Below, piece after piece: positions 1,312 to 60,294 of a stretch of DNA of 64,000 nt. Where the stretch lies: the NCBI GenBank assembly GCA_965203315.1, contig OZ241857.1:480001-544000 (forward strand). Reading direction: 5' to 3'. Each line of letters begins with the position of its first letter. The stretch's first letter is position 1. The notes below the pieces were generated by a model, which worked only from the letters and a program-made list of their open reading frames with translations, had not been told where the DNA came from and did no database searches. The position numbers and the translations under genes were made by a program. Source of the DNA: Nitrosopumilus sp. (GTDB lineage: Archaea > Thermoproteota > Nitrososphaeria > Nitrososphaerales > Nitrosopumilaceae).

Positions 1312-1611
1312 TCAAGCAGATCGACTCCTGTTATCTCGTAATCGTTTATTGGTACATTTGCAGTTTCGTTCTTTGATGTGTACGACAGACTTTGAGTCTG
1401 TATCGGATTTATCATATTTTGATATTAAAAGATAGTCATCAATTTTAATCCCCAGACTAGCTAGATGCTCAATGTTATTACACAAGAATTCTAGATCATC
1501 TGCTATCTCTTTTAGTCTAGTTCGGATACGGCGCTTGTATAATTTCTTGTTTGCAGCAGACAAGACTCCTGGCGAACTGACCACTTGTCTCTCTATATCA
1601 CTTAGACACAT
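1312..1611 (-). CDS. Small basic protein, paralog 1 of the actin-associated triplet
   Basis: MCLSDIERQVVSSP...YKRRIRTRLKEIADDLEFL; start overlaps the end of the actin gene. Confidence 0.75.
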   Translation of the reverse strand: MCLSDIERQVVSSPGVLSAANKKLYKRRIRTRLKEIADDLEFLCNNIEHLASLGIKIDDYLLISKYDKSDTDSKSVVHIKERNCKCTNKRLRDNRSRSA

Positions 1612-2468
1612 TTTGCCTGCCTCAACATTCCTAGTGCGTTTGCAAATACTGGCTCTTTAGCTACTTGTAAATTGGATATCGTATCGTTTCTGATCTCTGA
1701 TATCAACTTTGGTATTAATGCTCCTCCGCCTGCACATATTACAGGTAGGTTTGAATAATTTAAAACGACCTTTTCTAATGCATTTGAAATCGTACCTGCT
1801 AAAACTTTACGATACTGTGCTAGCTCGTTATCTCGTCTCTGAAATACAGTACTGTCTAGATACTCTACCATCGAAGTAGATATGGCATCTGTGATATCTC
1901 CAACTCCGTTCATTATAGTCTGACCATACGCAATATCGTCTCCAATCACTACCATTATCTCGGTTGTACCGTGGCCGATATGACATACGATACCATTCTG
2001 TATATTCTCATGTATCAGAGTGGCGCGTGCTTGGTACATCATTCCAAAGAACTTTGGTTTGAATCTCTCTACAACTGCAGCCTTGATCTGTTTTGATTTA
2101 TGTCGAGCTACATAAGGTATACCTGCGACTATAATCAAATCTTCATAGCTCTTTGGAGCATTATAGATGGGTTCTGTATGCGCCTTGAGAACTCTGTCCA
2201 AGGCATGTTGTATCAGAGCTAGATAGTCTCTCATGGATGTAGGCGCACCTCTATACACGGGAGTCTTTAGAACTATGGAGCGAATCGGTTCTAGCTTTAC
2301 TGCCGCATCACCTACTGCATACACTTCACTAGATTGATTGAGATCTAGTTTGTGCCCTCTTGCAATAACTGATGGAAACTTGAACTGTTGTGTACTGGTT
2401 GCGACCTTGACAGTCCCAGTCCCAATGTCTAGTCCAACTGTATTCAGATTCAACAATCTATACAGCAA
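1602..2468 (-). CDS. Actin-like ATPase (ParM/StbA/MreB-like)
   Basis: Actin-fold motifs GLDIGTGTVK (phosphate 1), HIGHGTT (phosphate 2), AGGGA (adenosine), PVFANALG (connect 2). Confidence 0.88.
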   Translation of the reverse strand: MLYRLLNLNTVGLDIGTGTVKVATSTQQFKFPSVIARGHKLDLNQSSEVYAVGDAAVKLEPIRSIVLKTPVYRGAPTSMRDYLALIQHALDRVLKAHTEPIYNAPKSYEDLIIVAGIPYVARHKSKQIKAAVVERFKPKFFGMMYQARATLIHENIQNGIVCHIGHGTTEIMVVIGDDIAYGQTIMNGVGDITDAISTSMVEYLDSTVFQRRDNELAQYRKVLAGTISNALEKVVLNYSNLPVICAGGGALIPKLISEIRNDTISNLQVAKEPVFANALGMLRQAKCV

Positions 2469-3631: not shown

Positions 3632-3726
3632 AGGGGCGAGACAGGCGATGATTATTCACCCAGCACTGAGAGAGTTTGACCCCTCTCAATGATGAATCTG
3701 GCGTTGTATGAGTCCTCGAATCCCCT
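3632..3726 (+). ncRNA. C/D unit A1 (BHB-flanked)
   Basis: ATGATTA-ttcacccagca-CTGA-hairpin-ATGATGA-atctggcgttgt-ATGA. Confidence 0.75.
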
Positions 3727-3767
3727 ACTTTATAATTCTCACTTTTCGCCAGATTTGGCTTTTGTAA

Positions 3768-3834
3768 AGTGAGGGCGATGATGAGAGAAACGACGTCTGA
3801 CTCTGATGGGCGTTACGATAACTGAGCCCTCACT
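3768..3834 (+). ncRNA. C/D unit B1
   Basis: agtgagggc/gccctcact stem; ATGATGA-gagaaacgacgt-CTGA..CTGATGG-gcgttacgataa-CTGA. Confidence 0.85.
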
Positions 3835-3868
3835 GTATGTACATTTCTTCTAACTATTAACTGTAATC

Positions 3869-3960
3869 GGGCGAGACAGGCGATGATGAGACGGAGCTAT
3901 ATGAGAGGGCATAGCCCCCTCAATGATTAGAGCCTGTTAATCAGAGTCCTCGAATCCCCT
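3869..3960 (+). ncRNA. C/D unit A2 (BHB-flanked)
   Basis: ATGATGA-gacggagctat-ATGA-hairpin-ATGATTA-gagcctgttaat-CAGA. Confidence 0.7.
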
Positions 3961-4001
3961 ACTTAATAATTTTCACTTTCAGCCAGATTTGGCTTTTGTA
4001 A

Positions 4002-4070
4002 AGTGAGGGCGATGATGAGAGAAACGAAATCTGACTCCATGATGAGTTACGACTAGTCTGAGCCCTCACT
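4002..4070 (+). ncRNA. C/D unit B2
   Basis: 9-bp terminal stem; ATGATGA-gagaaacgaaat-CTGA..ATGATGA-gttacgactagt-CTGA, all four boxes consensus. Confidence 0.9.
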
Positions 4071-4105
4071 GTCTGTACATTTCTTCTAACTATTAACTGT
4101 AATCT

Positions 4106-4196
4106 GGCGAGACAGACGATGAAGAGTAAGAACTCCACTGAGAGTGTTTGACCCCTCTCAATGATGAATGAGTTGCACAGAGTCCTCGAATCCCCT
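4106..4196 (+). ncRNA. C/D unit A3 (BHB-flanked)
   Basis: ATGAAGA-gtaagaactcca-CTGA-hairpin-ATGATGA-atgagttgca-CAGA. Confidence 0.7.
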
Positions 4197-4236
4197 ACTT
4201 AATAATTCTCGCTTGTTGCCAGATTTGGCTTTGTAA

Positions 4237-4307
4237 AGTGAGGGCAATGATGAGTGAAACGACGTCTGACATCTAGTGATGAAAGATAACCTGTCTGAGC
4301 CCTCACT
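4237..4307 (+). ncRNA. C/D unit B3
   Basis: 9-bp terminal stem; ATGATGA-gtgaaacgacgt-CTGA..GTGATGA-aagataacctgt-CTGA, all four boxes consensus. Confidence 0.9.
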
Positions 4308-4343
4308 GTTTGTACATTTTGCTAGCTATTAACTGTACTTGGC

Positions 4344-4430
4344 CGCGACAGACGATGATTATTAACTCAACACTGAGAGAAGATACTCCTCTCATTGATG
4401 AATCTGGCGTTGTAAGTCATCGAATTCACC
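4344..4430 (+). ncRNA. C/D unit A4 (degenerate)
   Basis: ATGATTA-ttaactcaaca-CTGA-hairpin-TTGATGA-atctggcgttgt; D box and BHB helix decayed. Confidence 0.55.
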
Positions 4431-4470
4431 ATGTTAGAATTATCCCTTTTCGCCAGATTTGGCTTTGTAA

Positions 4471-4537
4471 AGTGAGGGCAATGATGAGTGAAACGACTTC
4501 TGACTCTGATGAGTTACGACTAGTTTGAGCCCTCGCT
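4471..4537 (+). ncRNA. C/D unit B4
   Basis: ATGATGA-gtgaaacgactt-CTGA..CTGATGA-gttacgactagt-TTGA within agtgagggc/gccctcgct stem. Confidence 0.8.
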
Positions 4538-4569
4538 TGCTGTACATTTCGTCGAGTTATTACATCTAC

Positions 4570-4666
4570 AGGGGCGAGACAGACGATGAGGATGGATAGG
4601 AAATCTGAGGGCGTTTGACCACCTCTCAATGATGAACGAATCACATTCCGAGTCCTCGAACCCCCT
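4570..4666 (+). ncRNA. C/D unit A5 (BHB-flanked)
   Basis: ATGAGGA-tggataggaaat-CTGA-loop-ATGATGA-acgaatcacatt-CCGA; perfect agggg-cgag-aca-gac / gtc-ctcg-aac-cccct. Confidence 0.75.
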
Positions 4667-5285: not shown

Positions 5286-5894
5286 ATGAGCGACGAAAAA
5301 ACCAACAGACTATCTCGTAGAGAACAGATTCGCAAGTCTCTCAGAGACAATACAAAGTATACGTCGATTCTAACTGCAGGTGTATCGGCACTTGTGATGG
5401 GAGTTATGGCACTACTTGTAACTCCACCAGAACAAGATGCATATGCGCTAGCAATCATGGGAATCGGCATATCCTTTATTATCGCAAGTATCGTAGGGCT
5501 GATAATGGCATCGCAGACAGATGAGATTGCAGCTCGTATTTATGAGCGATTCGACAGACAAGATGAATTAGCAGAGAGACGTCATCAAGAGATGATATCA
5601 GTACTCAAAGAGATATCCAATAAACTAGACGCATTAGACAAGCTAGACAAGCTAGATGTCATGGATAGTAAACTGGACGTCATAGTCAACAACACCACCA
5701 AACTGGATGTCATAGTCAACAAACTAGACACCATAGACAACAACACCACCACCAAACTGGATGTCATAGTCAACAAACTAGACACCATAGACAACAACAC
5801 CACCACCAAACTGGATGTCATAGTCAACAAACTAGACACCATAGACAGTAAACTAGACACCATAGACAACAACACTAGACCATCTAATGCGTAG
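5286..5894 (+). CDS. 2TM + coiled-coil repeat protein, tandem copy 1
   Basis: Two hydrophobic helices then KLDVIVNKLDTIDNNTTT repeats. Confidence 0.85.
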   Translation: MSDEKTNRLSRREQIRKSLRDNTKYTSILTAGVSALVMGVMALLVTPPEQDAYALAIMGIGISFIIASIVGLIMASQTDEIAARIYERFDRQDELAERRHQEMISVLKEISNKLDALDKLDKLDVMDSKLDVIVNNTTKLDVIVNKLDTIDNNTTTKLDVIVNKLDTIDNNTTTKLDVIVNKLDTIDSKLDTIDNNTRPSNA

Positions 5895-9903: not shown

Positions 9904-9948
9904 AGATGGCGTGTATCTCAAACCCACATCCCATTTTTGAGGATAAAA

Positions 9949-10770
9949 ATGAGTCAAGTAAGAACCTCTGAGAAAGCCAGAGAGATACTAGTCGAACTAG
10001 CAGAAAAGTTCGGCAAGACCGAATTCGTAGACAGTTCGGCCAAGATGTTGATAGATGCTCGTACATATGCAAAGCCATCGAGCTCATGGTCATTGGGTAA
10101 TCAACTAGCAATGTACTTTGGTGGTACCATGGATGCAAGAGGATACAATCAATGGAACGCAGTAGGACGACATGTCAAGAAAGGAGCAAAGGCAATCTAC
10201 ATTCTAGGTCCAATGACTAGAAAGATCGAGCCCAAGGAGGGTGAAGACGAACGAATCATAATAACTGGATTTAGAGCGATACCCGTATTCCGATTCGAAG
10301 ATACAAAAGGTAAACCACTAAAAGAGTACAAACCCAAGACACTTCCACCGTTGTATCATCTAGCAGAAGAGAATGATATCAAGGTAGAGTATATCGAATC
10401 TAGACATGGTGAATATGGTTCGATACACATTCCAACAAAGAACATGACGCTGAGTACAGAGTCGCCGGATACGTTCTTGCACGAACTGATGCATCTATAC
10501 GACAACAAGAGTCAAGAACTGAAACCAGGACAAGACCCCATACAAGAGACTGTAGCACAGCTTGGTGCATGTGTTCTAGCCAAGATGTATGGATATGACG
10601 TAGAGGCACATACATGGAACTATATCTCAGCATATGCGGGTTCAAAAGATCCCAAAGCTGTTGGCAACATGTGCTTCAAGGTATTACAACGTGTTCAGCT
10701 AGCAATAAACAAGATACTAGATGATGCACAAGAACTGAAACCAATCGAGGCAAGTATAACAAAGATGTAG
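9949..10770 (+). CDS. ArdC-like ssDNA-binding/antirestriction protein with zincin-like domain
   Basis: WSLGNQL..RGYNQWNAVGRHVKKGAKAIYIL..FRAIPVFRFEDTKG (ArdC N-domain pattern) and HELMH. Confidence 0.85.
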   Translation: MSQVRTSEKAREILVELAEKFGKTEFVDSSAKMLIDARTYAKPSSSWSLGNQLAMYFGGTMDARGYNQWNAVGRHVKKGAKAIYILGPMTRKIEPKEGEDERIIITGFRAIPVFRFEDTKGKPLKEYKPKTLPPLYHLAEENDIKVEYIESRHGEYGSIHIPTKNMTLSTESPDTFLHELMHLYDNKSQELKPGQDPIQETVAQLGACVLAKMYGYDVEAHTWNYISAYAGSKDPKAVGNMCFKVLQRVQLAINKILDDAQELKPIEASITKM

Positions 10771-11667: not shown

Positions 11668-11883
11668 TTGTACGTATACACAATGACTGCAGTAGAGAAG
11701 GCAATAGAGTTGCTAGAGGGGCACCCATTCTATAACGTCCTAGTTGAATATGTTGCAACAAAAGCCACAAGATATACTCAAGCAAAGATCATATTTGACA
11801 AGAGACTTGGAGCAAGTTCAGGAACAGAAAATATGATACGTGATGCAGTATTTGATGCATTAAAACAGAGGCATGTGAGATGA
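11668..11883 (+). CDS. Hypothetical protein
   Basis: Co-oriented; stop overlaps nuclease start. Confidence 0.6.
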   Translation: MYVYTMTAVEKAIELLEGHPFYNVLVEYVATKATRYTQAKIIFDKRLGASSGTENMIRDAVFDALKQRHVR

Positions 11884-12470
11884 GATTTCGATATGGGACT
11901 ATTGGTGTTGTTGTGTTGTGTATGGGGCTAGTATTATTTGCAGCTAGTGTATTACCAAACTATCAATCAAACATAGATAAAGCCACAAACGAGATATCTG
12001 GCATAGATAGAACAACACCAAACGTTGAATCAAGTCAGGATAAAACACCAAACACCAACATCAATATAGATAGAACAACAAACATCGAAACAGATATCAC
12101 AGAACGAGATACCAGCTGCTCAATGTGTTATACGGGTATCGTAACTAGAATAGTTGACGGAGATACAATTCATGTAGATGATAATATAATACGACTTGCG
12201 ATGGTCGATACTCCTGAACGAGGTGAGTCAAACTATGCTGCCGCAACTGCACATACTAGATCTACATGCCCTATTGGTACAACAGCACTAGTTGATATAG
12301 ATGATCTGCAGATACAAGATCGTTATGGCAGACAGATAGCAAAGGTGACTTGCAGCGGTACAATACTGAACGAATCACTACTAGTATCAAATCTCGCAGA
12401 CGTGTATCACTACTTTTGTTCAAGGTCAGAGTTTGCGAGTGAACCTTGGTTGAACAACGAATGCACATAG
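11880..12470 (+). CDS. Secreted/anchored thermonuclease (SNase family)
   Basis: N-terminal hydrophobic helix; VTRIVDGDTI, IRLAMVDTPE, DRYGR motifs. Confidence 0.92.
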   Translation: MRFRYGTIGVVVLCMGLVLFAASVLPNYQSNIDKATNEISGIDRTTPNVESSQDKTPNTNINIDRTTNIETDITERDTSCSMCYTGIVTRIVDGDTIHVDDNIIRLAMVDTPERGESNYAAATAHTRSTCPIGTTALVDIDDLQIQDRYGRQIAKVTCSGTILNESLLVSNLADVYHYFCSRSEFASEPWLNNECT

Positions 12471-17486: not shown

Positions 17487-17634
17487 ACCAAAAGGACTAG
17501 CACGCCAAAGTGTAGAGCCTTTATCTCTTGCGTAATCAATATTCTGTGTACAATATACGATATACGATATTGTACAACAGAACTGCTGCTCGGCAGGATT
17601 GTATGTGAAGAGATTCCCTATGGAGGTAGGAAAT
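17484..17634 (+). repeat. Dispersed intergenic repeat / leader copy 11
   Basis: Same repeat with different but still paired inner arm tgtacaatat/atattgtaca. Confidence 0.9.
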
Positions 17635-18540
17635 ATGAACAAAAATATGAATGGCTCATCAGAGCCAATACAGAACATTCGTGTTCTACCAATAAATCCG
17701 GTGGAGTTTATTCCAAGGAATGTCCCACGATTTATTGAGACTCGTAACGAGTCTGCAAGACTCCAAGTTGCAATGGAGTCAACTGATCCGCTACTTTTGG
17801 TTGGACCAAAAGGAATCGGAAAGACACTCTGCATTGATGCATTTGCAGCAAAGCTCAATGTACCGCTGATTCGATATGACTGTTCAGATGGTACGAAAAA
17901 GTTTGATCTCTATGGACGATTTACTATAATCGGACATGAGACGGTGTACAAACCCGGCATACTAGCTACTGCTATAGAGACAGCAAACCAGTTCGGTACA
18001 GCCGTTCTAGTACTAGAAGAGGTAAATGCGCTAAACGGTGCAATGCAAAAGGTACTGAACTCGCTATTAGATTATCGTCATTCGTTGATGATAGAAGAGT
18101 TGAACAAGGTGTATTCATTGAGAGATGGTGCCAATCTCTTGATATGTGCTACAATGAATCCCAGTACGTATGGTGGCACAAACGAACTGAACGAAGATCT
18201 AAAGTCTAGATTTGCCATCTGGAAGTGGAAGTATCCTGAAGAGAATGAAGAACGTGAAATACTCAACACACAAGGTATCCCAGAGTTGTTTGTAACTCGA
18301 ATGTTACAGTTTGCTCAAGATACGAGAAATACTGCAGCTGCAGGAAAGATAGAATATGCGCTATCACCACGTGATCTAGACATGTTCTTTAGACGATACC
18401 GCATATATCTTGGCAGACCAGAGTTTGGACTCGATACCGTATTTGAAGAGTGCATCTTGAACAAGTATGATGCGGCATCAGATATAGAGTATATCAACGA
18501 TCGAAGACAGTCTATATTTGGCAAGGATGTATCAAGATAA
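17635..18540 (+). CDS. MoxR/CbbQ-type AAA+ ATPase
   Basis: Walker A GPKGIGKT, Walker B VLEEVN, ATMNP sensor, DLKSRF Arg finger. Confidence 0.92.
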   Translation: MNKNMNGSSEPIQNIRVLPINPVEFIPRNVPRFIETRNESARLQVAMESTDPLLLVGPKGIGKTLCIDAFAAKLNVPLIRYDCSDGTKKFDLYGRFTIIGHETVYKPGILATAIETANQFGTAVLVLEEVNALNGAMQKVLNSLLDYRHSLMIEELNKVYSLRDGANLLICATMNPSTYGGTNELNEDLKSRFAIWKWKYPEENEEREILNTQGIPELFVTRMLQFAQDTRNTAAAGKIEYALSPRDLDMFFRRYRIYLGRPEFGLDTVFEECILNKYDAASDIEYINDRRQSIFGKDVSR

Positions 18541-20285
18541 TGTCTGTTATGATAGAGCGATATGAAAAAACTGCAAATATAGTAAACAACATCAAAGGTA
18601 CCAAGTTTACTCTACTGTGCGGTGATGGTAGAGATATCTTGTGGAAGAATAGCGAGATCATGATAACTGACAAAGATACACTGACCAATCTAGAGCACTC
18701 ACTAGCTCACATCATGTATGATTCTAGAGCACCAACAAACAGTACAATCATCGAGATAACAAAGACAGATCAAGGACATGATGGCTCGGCATTCTTTAAG
18801 GAGATATTCTATACACTAGAAGCAGAGCGAGTCGAGAGTAATTGGGGTGAGATATACTATGGTTCACATCAAGAGTTTGAACGACAGAGAAGTGAACGTG
18901 GTACAATGGATAGTGGTGAACTCGATCCAATGCGTGCAATACAGTTTGCTAGAAACGGTAGTATCGGCAAACTAGAGGGTACACAGTACGAGCAAGCCAT
19001 ACAATACATCAATACTGTACACGGTATGGACAGCAAGGTATCACTCAAGCTTGCCATAGAATACTATGAAAAATATGTCAAGGATTGGCTAGATGTACAA
19101 ATATCAAAGATACGAGAAGAGCATTTAGAGAAACTCGTACAGAGAATAAAAGATCACTTTGAAGAACAGATAGAGGAACAAAAGAGAGAGCTAGATAGAA
19201 CTGGAGATAAAAATGTACGGAAACGCATAAACGAGTTGTACAAAGACATGAGCAATACAATAGAGAACAAGACCATACATGACATACGCATATCTAGCTG
19301 GGATGTAGAAAATATCTTGAAAGACTATTCGACGAGAACACGTCAGGAATGTCATGAGAATAGTCCTAAAAAGTTGTCCAAGAGTACTGTACAAAGTATT
19401 CAAAAGAGAGATATGGACTCTTTGGTCAAACAAGGCAAGAAAGCAACTGCAAAGATCAATAGTAAGATCAAAGAGATCAATCGTCCTGTACAACCCAAAC
19501 TTGCAAACCTTGCAGAAAAGATACATGTCTCGAATAGACCTGAAGAAGAATATACCATAGATTATGAGACATCATACAGATTGCGCAAGTTGATCAACGA
19601 GGTTAAAGCAAGTCGTACACAAGTATACGACATGCAAGGAAATATGATAGATGTTGATGAGTATATCCAAGATATCATCAATACCAAACAAGGTATCTAT
19701 TGGGAAGACGAAGAACCTAGTAAGGGACTAGCTATTGTAATTGGCATAGATTGTTCAGGTTCTATGCCAGATGGTGCAATGCAGGCTTGTCGAGACATGT
19801 GTGCTACAATACTATACGCAACCCAGCGACTCAAAGATGTAGCAATAACATTTGTACCATGGAGTACAAGTAACAGTCGACACGATTTGTACGCCAACGA
19901 GTTTACGACACTAGACGAGATCAAATGCATATCAAAGAACTATGAGCCACAAAATGCCAATGATCTAGCACATCAATATCTAGACAGAGTCATCGCGAAG
20001 AGCAATGCCGTAAATAAAGTCATCATAATGATGACTGATGGTGAACCATACTGTCATGGAATAGATCCAAATGTGCTCTTTGCAAATACTGTAGAAGCAA
20101 TAAGACAGAGTAAGTTGAGAGGCAATCTAGTGTATGGCGTATTTCTGAACTTTGGCGCCAACGAAGATAGGGCAAAAAAGATGGCAGGCATGTATCGTAG
20201 TAACTTTGTATCGTGCAATACAATGAACGATGCAAGCAAGGCTGTCATCGAACTGACCCAGAATCACATCTTGAGAGCTATCTAG
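18540..20285 (+). CDS. vWA-domain partner of the MoxR ATPase
   Basis: MIDAS DCSGS...MTDGEP; N-terminal LEHSLAH/EAERVE metallopeptidase-like segment. Confidence 0.88.
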   Translation: MSVMIERYEKTANIVNNIKGTKFTLLCGDGRDILWKNSEIMITDKDTLTNLEHSLAHIMYDSRAPTNSTIIEITKTDQGHDGSAFFKEIFYTLEAERVESNWGEIYYGSHQEFERQRSERGTMDSGELDPMRAIQFARNGSIGKLEGTQYEQAIQYINTVHGMDSKVSLKLAIEYYEKYVKDWLDVQISKIREEHLEKLVQRIKDHFEEQIEEQKRELDRTGDKNVRKRINELYKDMSNTIENKTIHDIRISSWDVENILKDYSTRTRQECHENSPKKLSKSTVQSIQKRDMDSLVKQGKKATAKINSKIKEINRPVQPKLANLAEKIHVSNRPEEEYTIDYETSYRLRKLINEVKASRTQVYDMQGNMIDVDEYIQDIINTKQGIYWEDEEPSKGLAIVIGIDCSGSMPDGAMQACRDMCATILYATQRLKDVAITFVPWSTSNSRHDLYANEFTTLDEIKCISKNYEPQNANDLAHQYLDRVIAKSNAVNKVIIMMTDGEPYCHGIDPNVLFANTVEAIRQSKLRGNLVYGVFLNFGANEDRAKKMAGMYRSNFVSCNTMNDASKAVIELTQNHILRAI

Positions 20286-37321: not shown

Positions 37322-38443
37322 ATGAACGCAAGAACTCAGAAATCGATAGAGATCATGAACACGGAAGGACATTGTTCCCAGATCGATAGAGACACGTTTA
37401 GTGTCAGATCTCAGACCAACCACGACATACGGTACAACGTATCAAGAACGGATCGCGGTCTAGTATGTGAGTGTCCCGATCACCGATACCGCAAAGCAGA
37501 TTGCAAACACATCAAGGTTGTTCTACACATTATAAAAAAGAACAAGTGTTGGCAGAATAACACTGTTCGAGTCATGGAACGATCTCAACTACTCTTATGT
37601 AAGAAATGCGATTCTGGTAGAACAATCAAAAAGGGATTCCGAAACACAAAGAGAGGCAAAGTACAATTGTTTTGGTGCAAAGATTGCAAAAGTCGTTTTA
37701 CCCCCAATCACGGCTTTGAGAAAAAACAGTTTGATGATGAAATCATAACTGACACAATGCAGATATACAATCAGGGGAACTCTGTAAGAGACATTGCAAA
37801 CCACTTTGAGATGAAGGGAATCAATGTAAACCCTAGTACCATATATCGCTGGGTATCAGAGTATGGCAAAGAATCATGTGTGTATCTTGATAGTATCATA
37901 CCGCGAGTTGGTAAATGGTATCGAGCCGACGAGTTATACCTCAAGATATCGGGACAGCAACGACACTTGTACAGTTCCATGGACGATGATACCAGATACT
38001 GGATCACTCACGAACTAGCTGATTCCAAGTACATGCATAACACAGATCAGTTTCTACATCAGACTCTGGAACAAACTGGCAAACGACCAACTAATTTCAT
38101 AACTGATGGTCTACCTGCATACGAAAAGTCTAGCAAACGTGTATTCGGCAAAGAGACACGACACATCAAACACATTCACTTGACAGGCAAACGATCAAGA
38201 GATAACAACAACAAGATGGAACGATTGAATGGTACAATCCGAGATCGAGAGGTAGCATTTCGAGGACTCAAGAACGACGATACAAACCTCATCGATGGAT
38301 TCAGAACATTCTACAACTGTACCAAAAAACATGAGGGTCTGGGAGGCAAGACTCCAGCTGAAGAAGCACTGATCTTGATCGATGGACCCAACAAGTGGAA
38401 GACGATCATTCAGAATGCGAGTCTGTACAAGAGATCGTTTTAA
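37322..38443 (+). CDS. IS6-family transposase with N-terminal SWIM and Zn ribbon
   Basis: CECPD..CKH; ADELY, ITDG, NNKMERLNG. Confidence 0.9.
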   Translation: MNARTQKSIEIMNTEGHCSQIDRDTFSVRSQTNHDIRYNVSRTDRGLVCECPDHRYRKADCKHIKVVLHIIKKNKCWQNNTVRVMERSQLLLCKKCDSGRTIKKGFRNTKRGKVQLFWCKDCKSRFTPNHGFEKKQFDDEIITDTMQIYNQGNSVRDIANHFEMKGINVNPSTIYRWVSEYGKESCVYLDSIIPRVGKWYRADELYLKISGQQRHLYSSMDDDTRYWITHELADSKYMHNTDQFLHQTLEQTGKRPTNFITDGLPAYEKSSKRVFGKETRHIKHIHLTGKRSRDNNNKMERLNGTIRDREVAFRGLKNDDTNLIDGFRTFYNCTKKHEGLGGKTPAEEALILIDGPNKWKTIIQNASLYKRSF

Positions 38444-57271: not shown

Positions 57272-57568
57272 TATGAAAATCATGAAATGCAACGCAAATG
57301 TCATGGGTTGTCTTAAGAGAAAGATAATTACGCCAAAAATATAGCTTGAAATTACAAAAATCATTGTGTCGTGCAAGAATAAATCATGCAGACGACCATA
57401 AAATTTTGATTGTTTTGTGTATTGGCGTGAATATCTTTACAACAAATCAAAATTTATCTGACTTTTTTCGTATTTTATGATAATCGTTGTGATTTGAACT
57501 ACACAATTAGCAAAAGGCAACAAGATTGCTTAGCAACAAACCGGAAAATAATTATGTTCGTGACTATA

Positions 57569-58246
57569 TAATTGGATTGCACAATACTCTGATGAATCAT
57601 GTGCATACATGGATAGTATCATACCGCGAGTTGGTAAATGGTATAGGGCTGACGAGTTGTACCTCAAAATAAGTGGAAAACAACGATACTTGTACAGTTC
57701 CATGGATGATGACACTCGGTACCGGATTACGCATGAACTAGCAGATTCCAAGTACATGCATAACACCGATCAGTTTCTACAACAGACTCTGGAACAGACT
57801 GGTAAACGACCAACCAATTTTATCACTGATGGTCTACCAGCATACGAAAAGTCCAACAAACATGTATTTGGCAAAGAGACCAGACACATCAAGCACATTC
57901 ACTTGACTGGTAAGCGATCCCGTGATAATAACAACAAGATGGAGCGTCTAAATGGTACCATACGAGATCGAGAGGTCGCATTTCGAGGACTCAAGAAAGA
58001 TGACACAAGATTCATTGGTGGATTTCGTACATTCTACAACTGTACAAAAAAGCACGAGGGTCTGGGTGGCAAGACCCCAGCTGAAGAAGCATTGATACTG
58101 ATCGATGGACCCAACAAGTGGAAGACGATCATCCAGAATGCGAGTCTCTACAAGAGATCGCTTTAACCTTTTTTATACACAAGCGTTAAGGTAGATTTCA
58201 TAACCGTTCGTCTAAAATTCTCAGATCTCGAAGATGCAACAGAACC
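57569..58246 (+). mobile_element. 5'-truncated IS6-family element
   Basis: ORF 57609-58166 matches the C-terminal half of 37322-38443; right TIR tctcgaagatgcaacagaacc. Confidence 0.88.
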
Positions 58247-59438: not shown

Positions 59439-60053
59439 GATTCTGTAAACTTGGCGGGTGGTGGAGGTTTTATCAAACAAAATTTTCTAAATCTCTCAAA
59501 TTGTTTTCATCTAAGTTCAAACACAAAATTAACAATATGCAGGATCTTTATTAAACAAGATGTTATTTATCAACTAGAGTTTAAAACTCACTTTTTTAAA
59601 CTTGAATTTTGAATTAATGTGTCCAATATATTGTCTCCAAGTATTACGATTTCGTCCATGGTACAAGGTATTTCACCATCTAAACTCATATGCCGTGTAA
59701 TAAAATTTCGAGTTATCACCAGTCTAGAAATAATTGTACTGTTCGATTTTTTCATACCTCTGTATACTTTAAAATTGTCTTGGAGTCATCCATTAAAACG
59801 CTCTTCTATGTTGTTAGATCGTTGATTGTGCAGAGAAGTTTCTTTTATGTGTTTGACACGTTTGTTTGTGGGATTTTTCTCGAGGAATTCTTTTCTAAAT
59901 GCTTTAGCAAATGAACGTGATGAATCAGATACAAATATTTTTGCTACTGTCTTTGCAACTCGTTTAGCTTTTCTAAATAGTCTTGTAGGGGCATCACCAT
60001 ATTTTTGTGGTTTTATTTCATGTGCAATATAAAATCTTGTATCATGATCCATT
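59439..60053 (-). pseudogene. IS6-family transposase remnant
   Basis: MDHDTRF..VSD..NNIEERFNG*; end gattctgtaaacttggcgggtggtgg also present at 28725. Confidence 0.75.
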
Positions 60054-60294
60054 AGACTGTATGCGTATTGGATCTTTTCGGTTTACGTGGGATGGCTTTT
60101 CGCAAGGCTTTTTCTATAATTTTCACTGATAGAATTTTGTCGTGCTTTTTCTATAACCATTCATCCCACGTAAACCGAAAAGATCCTGTTCGCTAATTCA
60201 GACAAATCTTTGTGTATTTGAAACAAAACAACGTAAATCTCTGTCAAAGTCTCATCATGTTAAGACGTGTTGAGATGAAATACGCATACAGTCT
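60054..60294. mobile_element. MITE with family-1 TIRs and a different interior
   Basis: agactgtatgcgtatt ends; inner inverted repeat 60070-60186. Confidence 0.8.

Follow-up and report, generated by a model that had tools for sequence, protein, structure and literature searches.

The repeat array and its units

A window of 64,000 nucleotides (nt) from the genome of Nitrosopumilus sp. (contig OZ241857.1, positions 480,001 to 544,000; positions below are those of the window unless another reference is named) contains, at 3632-4666, a tandem array of small RNA (sRNA) units of the box C/D type. Tandem Repeats Finder assigns the array a period of 234 and 4.1 copies, and its sequence resolves into nine alternating units, designated A1, B1, A2, B2, A3, B3, A4, B4 and A5 (Table 1). 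The boxes C, D', C' and D can be read in both kinds of unit, and the two kinds are distinguished by their ends: the A units are closed by a motif of the bulge-helix-bulge (BHB) kind, or in the case of A4 by the remains of one, and the B units by a plain stem.

The genome is archaeal and carries amoA, and within it the A-type flanks occur only in the array. Contigs of four sequencing runs were compared with the array: those of X6 gave no alignment, and those of X3, X4 and X5 showed zero letter differences and no joint of the kind that excision would leave. Separately, one X4 contig was seen to skip exactly one 234-nt unit (3747 to 3982), which reflects either a strain with one unit fewer or a collapse in assembly; these comparisons say nothing about expression. 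Nine matches to CGAGAC...TGATGA elsewhere in the genome were rejected as sRNAs, being coding or repeated-element sequence. A motif search also led, by chance, to six near-identical copies of a repeated element (C1 at 62492, 744190, 809995, 1069824, 1278938 and 1762576), each of which carries CGAGACGGATGATGA in apparent coding sequence.

Table 1. Positions of the array units, their BHB elements, the predicted excised pieces and other features of the window
Feature	Position	Strand	Description
Unit A1	3632..3726	+	box C/D sRNA inside hBHBh'
A1, 5' side	3632-3636, 3637-3640, 3641-3643, 3644-3646		AGGGG, CGAG, bulge ACA, GGC
A1, 3' side	3712-3714, 3715-3718, 3719-3721, 3722-3726		GTC, CTCG, bulge AAT, CCCCT
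Unit B1	3768..3834	+	box C/D sRNA; perfect 9-bp terminal stem 3768-3776/3826-3834, bulges none
Unit A2	3869..3958	+	BHB; 3-bp outer helix GGG/CCC 3869-3871/3956-3958
A2, inner elements	3872-3875/3949-3952; 3876-3878, 3953-3955; 3879-3881/3946-3948		central helix; bulges; inner helix
Unit B2	4002..4070	+	box C/D sRNA; 9-bp terminal stem
Unit A3	4106..4193	+	BHB; 2-bp outer helix GG/CC 4106-4107/4192-4193
A3, inner elements	4108-4111/4185-4188; 4112-4114, 4189-4191; 4115-4117/4182-4184		central helix; bulges; inner helix
Unit B3	4237..4307	+	box C/D sRNA; 9-bp terminal stem
Unit A4	4340..4430	+	decayed copy; 2/4 central pairs lost (CGCG/ATCG)
Unit B4	4471..4537	+	box C/D sRNA; one altered stem position; box D = TTGA
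Unit A5	4570..4666	+	BHB; 5-bp outer helix 4570-4574/4662-4666
A5, inner elements	4575-4578/4655-4658; 4579-4581, 4659-4661; 4582-4584/4652-4654		central helix; bulges ACA, AAC; inner helix GAC/GTC
Predicted excised piece A1	3643-3720	+	78 nt
Predicted excised piece A2	3878-3954	+	77 nt
Predicted excised piece A3	4114-4190	+	77 nt
Predicted excised piece A5	4581-4660	+	80 nt
TATA-like TTTATAATT	3729..3737	+	directly after A1; repeated after A2 (3963-3971) and A3 (4199-4207)
ParM/actin-like partition gene	1602-2468	-	
Weak ArdC-like open reading frame	9937-10770		
Nuclease	11880-12470		
AAA_5 ATPase and VWA protein	17599-20285		
Transposase copies	37322-38437, 57561-58160, 59591-60124		one full, two broken

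Geometry of the closing motif

A strict scanner located the complete helix-bulge-helix-bulge-helix arrangement (hBHBh') in four units, A1, A2, A3 and A5, each time in register with boxes C and D; it accepted only a central helix of 4 base pairs (bp), no bulge length other than 3 nt, and no outer or inner helix shorter than 2 bp. In each of these units a 3-nt bulge lies 3' of the central helix on either strand and the inner helix has 3 bp, while the outer helix comprises 5 bp in A1 and A5, 3 bp in A2 and 2 bp in A3, as compared with 7-13 bp in most relatives. The canonical BHB, as set out in the cited part of PMC7714728, has a 4-bp helix with a 3-nt bulge at either end, and outer helices of two or more Watson-Crick pairs, and the same layout (bulges of 3+3 nt, a 4-bp helix, and flanking helices of at least 2 bp) is found in all four units. 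Minimum-free-energy folding with flanks (RNAfold) returned the motif exactly for A2 and A5, and almost so for A1. The inner helix of the A units directly abuts boxes C and D, and therefore also acts as the stem of the terminal kink-turn (K-turn). ARAGORN detected no transfer RNA (tRNA) gene in the window; the motif is thus not formed with tRNA exons, and its outer helices are short free-standing stems.

An earlier reading of the window, made from its letters without database searches (the sequence-only reading), had already described this arrangement, and its account of the motif stands: the letters and the helix-bulge layout that it gave for A1 and A5 match the sequence exactly, the outer stems that it called shorter in A2 and A3 are so while the motif is retained, the status of canonical BHB that it claimed agrees with the published definition (PMC7714728, in the part cited), and A4 is decayed as it had said, with a broken central helix, no outer helix and the loss of box D (now GTAAGTC). 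Because the four intact array copies are duplicates of one another, they amount to a single observation, and the weight of the argument falls upon related genomes.

Guide identity and ribosomal targets

In the A units the box sequences are relaxed, box C reading GATGATTA, GATGAAGA or GATGAGGA and box D reading ATGA, CAGA or CCGA; A1 shows covariation between box C position 6 (T) and box D position 1 (A). A search of the array against Rfam returned no family at its gathering score, and 93 matches below threshold, nearly all to C/D families and mostly on B units, the best on B2 being to sR1, whose gathering score of 45 exceeds the 26.7 bits obtained. In the A family, the terminal K-turn is accompanied by an internal C'/D' K-turn that is closed by a 5-bp stem.

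Targets were sought in the genome's own ribosomal RNA (rRNA), namely 16S (C1:295869-297355) and 23S (C1:297496-300486). Among the A units, the D guide of A1 has a 10-nt match at 16S position 922, the D guide of A2 pairs at 23S position 2540 (10 Watson-Crick and one G-U of 12), and the D' guide of A5 has a 10-nt match at 23S position 2605. Among the B units, the D' guides of B1 and B3 match 16S at adjoining places (9 nt at position 1361, and 10 Watson-Crick and one G-U of 12 at position 1360, respectively), and the D guide of B2, to which that of B4 is identical, has a 9-nt match at 16S position 1440; the remaining guides had no match of 8 nt or longer in the genome's own 16S and 23S. The D guide ATCTGGCGTTGT is common to A1 (3689-3711) and the decayed A4 (4394-4415), whose D' guides are also similar, and the D-guide core CTGGCGTT, directed at 16S position 922, is the best-conserved guide and is present in most relatives within the genus. 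The matches fall at conserved rRNA sites, which argues that these are working C/D guides, and the best explanation of the A units is membership in a conserved sRNA family, present in ammonia-oxidising archaea, of long box C/D guides for methylation.

Conservation and covariation of the motif in relatives

A BLAST search with the whole array against 40 relatives recovered no homologous array, and a single B-like sRNA (G009) was the sole match. Since RNA of this kind evolves too fast for BLAST, covariance models were employed: R1, built from the five A units, and a second model, R2. Within the genus, R1 located 11 further full-length places in 10 other genomes of 150, with E-values from 1e-13 to 7e-7. 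At the level of the family (150 genomes sampled across 27 genera, at E<=0.001) it located matches in nine genomes and five other genera, with BHB-type copies in seven genomes, and R2 contributed three more copies, in another genus. Across the order, R2 matched three of the 23 genomes of the family itself and none of the 127 genomes drawn from 19 other families.

The A-type homologues in relatives are single units, and they retain the BHB. The 36 distinct hits examined were made up of 23 with a strict BHB, five that were near-canonical (one mismatch or one additional nucleotide in the outer helix), the decayed A4, and seven more distant ones with other termini; 19 of the strict copies come from beyond the window and are spread over 15 genomes and four genera. 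In an alignment of 16 rows, 93.6% of the cells were paired, versus 29-54% with slid partners, and 10 of the 17 pairs had changed on both sides. A larger alignment of 25 rows (24 A-type sequences and one B unit let in by the search) gave 93.5% of cells paired, versus 28-51% when partners were slid by 1-3 columns, with change on both sides in 15 of 17 pairs; none of 500 shuffles reached the observed score. Compensatory change in the 25 rows affected all five pairs of the outer helix, three of the four central pairs, all three inner pairs, and four of the five pairs of the stem that closes the C'/D' K-turn. A MAFFT alignment, in which the 5' flanks of four homologues were misaligned, was left out of the pair counts.

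The helices vary in sequence, the central one occurring as CGAG/CTCG, CAAG/CTTG, CGAG/CTTG, CGGG/CCCG, TGAG/CTCG, TGAG/CTCA and TAAG/CTTG, and the inner one as GAC/GTC, GGC/GTC, AAC/GTT, GCA/TGC, GGC/GCC, GTT/GAC and AGC/GCT. The bulges are 3+3 nt and free of insertions or deletions in all 24 A-type rows, and both begin with A. The fold is almost certainly real and under selection.

Searches by pattern were also made. A 16-nt pattern scan of genome contigs gave chance matches, the 80 matches listed being bacterial except for two archaeal records. In a gapped-pattern scan of metagenomes none of the 80 stretches listed, of 117, matched R2, and in a scan of viral sequence none of the 80 listed, of 118, did so, results that say nothing on absence.

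Predicted excision and circularisation

The genome encodes two proteins with an EndA domain (PF01974, above cut-off; genes around C5:129395-129640 and C1:144187-144441), which corresponds to the two-subunit form of the tRNA splicing endonuclease, as well as RtcB (one PF01139 match), fibrillarin, Nop5 and two L7Ae-family proteins. A search with TIGR01209, presumed here to represent the Pab1020-type RNA ligase family, found no match in the genome (99.98% complete); a ligase of the Pab1020 type circularises C/D sRNAs in Thermococcales. A cut placed between bulge nucleotides 2 and 3 reproduced the exon border at tRNA positions 37/38 in the genome's own intron-containing tRNA-Tyr (read by hand), and the same rule defines the pieces listed in Table 1. 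A relaxed BHB scan of the genome's own rRNA processing stems and tRNA introns produced many ambiguous candidates, from which, tRNA-Tyr excepted, no conclusion was drawn. As a separate observation, ARAGORN called 48 tRNA genes in this genome, none of them for tryptophan, and several of its calls have implausible introns of 1600-1800 nt.

In the mechanism that is proposed, the two-subunit host EndA would cut each bulge between nucleotides 2 and 3, RtcB would then join the ends of the excised piece to yield a circular C/D sRNA, and the flanks would possibly be joined by RtcB as well. Cleavage, circularisation and exon joining are predicted here by analogy with the known pathway, in which EndA and RtcB yield circular introns from BHB sites in tRNA, in rRNA and in one 5' untranslated region (UTR), as described in the cited parts of PMC7714728 and PMC9014305. 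The best explanation of the A motif is that it is probably an EndA substrate, from which a guide of 77-80 nt would be released and circularised by RtcB; across the A family as a whole the predicted excised form is about 73-80 nt long.

The inference of the sequence-only reading, that host EndA would cut the array and release the A guides as circles, finds partial support in the conservation of the motif and the presence of the enzymes. The positions that it named for the bulges of A1 (about 3643 to 3720) coincide with those predicted by the cut rule. Its further proposal, that cleavage of the A units would free the B guides lying between them, is unsupported: the B stems are plain, and B-like sRNAs occur singly and without a BHB in relatives, so that B maturation appears independent of the motif. 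Its conclusion that no dedicated nuclease would be needed goes past the evidence.

Several points weigh against processing of the A units by EndA. The alignments behind the pair counts were fitted to the model's structure, and the genomes, being related, do not count as independent samples; the flanks are indel-free, and the slid-partner control preserves relatedness. The minimum-free-energy fold of A3 (RNAfold) differs from the BHB, and A2 and A3 have the short outer helices noted above. The cut sites would be separated by 3 bp from a K-turn bound by L7Ae, Nop5 and fibrillarin, and the bound complex could obstruct the enzyme. A literature search found no characterisation of the substrate range of EndA from an ammonia oxidiser.

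The remaining objections also support a different explanation, namely that the helices and bulges constitute an extended closing stem that aids the terminal K-turn or stops exonucleases, with no part for EndA and with a linear sRNA as the product. Archaeal C/D sRNAs mature by default without a BHB, according to the cited part of PMC7994747, and the motif is not needed for guide function, because seven related sRNAs and all of the B-type units have closing stems that lack it. This explanation is nonetheless unlikely. A plain stem would tolerate changes in the size and position of its bulges, whereas all 24 A-type rows keep bulges of 3+3 nt at a distance of 4 bp, and the helices change by compensation while the bulges stay as they are; constant bulges between compensating helices are the defining specification of an EndA substrate, and argue against a plain stem.

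Transcription of single units and of the array

In 18 of 23 loci of relatives, as measured at fixed offsets, a TATA-like 8-mer has its start 39-43 nt ahead of the central helix. Given the usual spacing of archaeal promoters, transcription would be expected to begin with the first few nucleotides of the outer helix. In the window, A2, A3 and A5 have just a degenerate TGTATGTA-like word at the place where a TATA element would be expected, and the array may be transcribed as one or several multi-unit transcripts. A TATA-like element with the consensus TT(T/A)ATAATT follows A1, A2 and A3, about 40 nt ahead of the next B stem, and is homologous to an element that follows the sRNA in relatives; it could be a promoter for B on its own, or a terminator for A.

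The TATA-like box upstream of the sRNAs of relatives is itself flanked by short repeated or palindromic words that are specific to each genome, such as ATAACCT, TTACCTAC and ATAGGCAT..ATGCCTAT, as seen in the 60 nt upstream of the sRNA in L128, L129, L131, L134, L136, L137, L148 and others. A small divergent open reading frame (ORF) adjoins these words (69 amino acids in L131, with no Pfam or PHROG match), and the two together look like an operator with its regulator. Another observation concerns L175 (G245), in which a 19-nt unit, CCAATATAGGACCGACTGT, is repeated in tandem at least three times, about 30-90 nt after a BHB-type sRNA.

Association with transposase genes

An IS6/IS240-type DDE transposase gene (PF13610, at 9e-13 and 3e-12) lies directly downstream, on the same strand, of 14 of the 24 BHB-type loci outside the window (L128, L130-L133, L136, L137, L148, L171-L173, L427, L428 and L430). 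In locus coordinates, the sRNA extends from about 1501 to 1605 and the transposase gene begins at about 1620; the gap between them, which contains a GAGGTG-like ribosome-binding site, measures about 110 nt in L172 and some 20-35 nt in the other 13. The sequence-only reading makes no mention of this association. In seven or more additional loci (L002, at 1497-1575, and L139, L144, L149, L151, L154 and L155), hits without a BHB, mostly B-like with a plain stem, precede a gene of the same transposase family, so that A-type and B-type guides look like alternative 5' modules of the transposase gene. What the two copies in G055 share begins exactly with the first few nucleotides of the sRNA and ends at the stop codon of the transposase, the sequence on either side being unrelated; the sRNA therefore probably belongs to the 5' leader of the transposase messenger RNA (mRNA) and moves with the gene.

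No consistent terminal inverted repeats were found around the combined sRNA-transposase unit, one 24-nt pair of 79% being seen in L133. The genome of the window has 26 matches to the transposase, among them the one full and two broken IS6/IS240-type copies of Table 1, with no sRNA upstream of any of the eight that were inspected, and no transposase adjoins the array or follows any A unit in the window. A literature search for a link between C/D sRNAs and transposases found none among the matches listed.

A wider interpretation, put forward tentatively and judged rather doubtful, is that the BHB-flanked sRNA may represent the archaeal counterpart of an intron-encoded small nucleolar RNA (snoRNA) carried by a mobile element. 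Such an sRNA would (i) possess its own TATA element and occupy the first 100 or so nucleotides of the transposase mRNA, (ii) be excised by EndA and circularised, and (iii) spread guides along with the transposase. The array in the window would then be a transposase-less amplification that joined A-type and B-type units, on what appears to be an integrated plasmid-like element.

The same loci lend themselves to a reading in which EndA cuts the motif mainly to control the downstream gene, the sRNA of relatives being a 5'-leader intron of the transposase mRNA, the guide its cargo or by-product, and the array a transposase-less relic. The position of the transposase in the 14 loci, the ribosome-binding site in the gap, the TATA spacing that fits a transcript starting at the outer helix, the coextensive copies in G055, and the precedent of a spliced 5' UTR in Haloferax HVO_1309 (PMC7714728, in the part cited) are all in keeping with it. 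It is nevertheless quite improbable, given that 10 of the 24 related loci have no transposase directly downstream, as is also the case for every A unit in the window, and that co-transcription is read from spacing alone; moreover, the match of the guides to conserved rRNA sites and the recurrence of the D guide CTGGCGTT within the genus argue for selection on the guide itself. Finally, the idea that one unit acquired its likeness to the BHB by chance and that tandem duplication then multiplied it, for which the near-identical flanks and spacers of the array might be adduced, is contradicted by the comparative data and has next to no credibility, because the same geometry recurs with other helix sequences and compensatory changes in the strict copies of other genomes, and because the slid-partner and shuffle controls fall below the observed values.

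Relation to known systems

The nearest known case is the intron of euryarchaeal pre-tRNA-Trp, a C/D RNA with BHB ends that is excised by the endonuclease and circularised, as described in the cited parts of PMC7714728, PMC9014305 and PMC12558985; like the A units, it is a C/D guide whose ends lie in a BHB. The A units differ from it in that (i) they have no tRNA host, the outer stem being free-standing rather than an anticodon stem; (ii) their guides match rRNA, and not a host tRNA; (iii) their host is an ammonia oxidiser with a two-subunit EndA; and (iv) they occur in an array or, in relatives, before a transposase gene.

Substrates of EndA beyond tRNA and rRNA include the intron of crenarchaeal cbf5 mRNA and the 5' UTR of Haloferax HVO_1309, a protein gene whose 5' leader holds a BHB that undergoes cleavage in vitro (PMC7714728, in the sections cited). 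These resemble the A units in that a BHB-flanked piece resides in a transcript other than tRNA; no guide RNA is mentioned for them in the cited part of that source, whereas the excised A piece is itself a C/D sRNA. In the processing stems of archaeal 16S and 23S rRNA and in the permuted signal recognition particle (SRP) RNA of Thermoproteus, the flanks of a functional RNA likewise pair into a BHB, with subsequent excision and circularisation (PMC7994747 and PMC4731332, in the parts cited); those RNAs are large, essential and single-copy, whereas the A-type RNA is a small, multi-copy and patchily distributed guide. Eukaryotic snoRNAs that are intron-encoded or polycistronic are also guides derived from a host transcript or from clusters, according to the cited part of PMC7994747, but are freed by the spliceosome and debranching, or by endo- and exonucleases, and not by the tRNA splicing endonuclease at a BHB.

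Circular C/D box sRNAs have been described from Pyrococcus, Thermococcus, Sulfolobus and Nanoarchaeum (PMC9014305 and PMC3491384, as cited). The termini of such sRNAs usually lack a BHB, and the route of their circularisation was called unclear in the cited part of a 2021 review (PMC7994747); those of T. kodakarensis depend on an ATP-dependent RNA ligase, as a 2022 study reports in the part cited (PMC9014305). In contrast to the circular sRNAs of thermophiles, the A units are flanked by a BHB, and are predicted to follow an EndA and RtcB route rather than to employ a dedicated ligase. Literature searches found no paper on any of three subjects: the C/D sRNAs of Nitrosopumilus, sRNAs of Thaumarchaeota with BHB flanks, and circular sRNAs of ammonia oxidisers. 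The A family would therefore offer a second, fully specified route of circularisation, through EndA and RtcB, in a mesophilic lineage from which circular sRNAs have not been reported, and it would, if the prediction holds, add to the few RNAs other than tRNA and rRNA that the splicing endonuclease is known to cut. The predicted junctions are defined to the nucleotide, so that the route is directly testable; and the link with transposases bears on the mobility of C/D sRNAs in archaea, a problem stated to be open in the cited part of PMC3491384.

Genomic surroundings

Within the first 24,000 nt of the window (1-24000), the array is situated in a run of same-strand ORFs that have no family matches. 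The partition gene, the weak ArdC-like ORF, the nuclease, and the AAA_5 ATPase and VWA protein listed in Table 1 lie in the same part of the window, and the neighbourhood of the array is possibly an integrated plasmid-like element. Beyond the array, at 5687-5847, a 54-nt repeat occurs in three exact copies (99% matches) inside an ORF at 5286-5894, and further repeats of 21 nt and 9 nt are found nearby.

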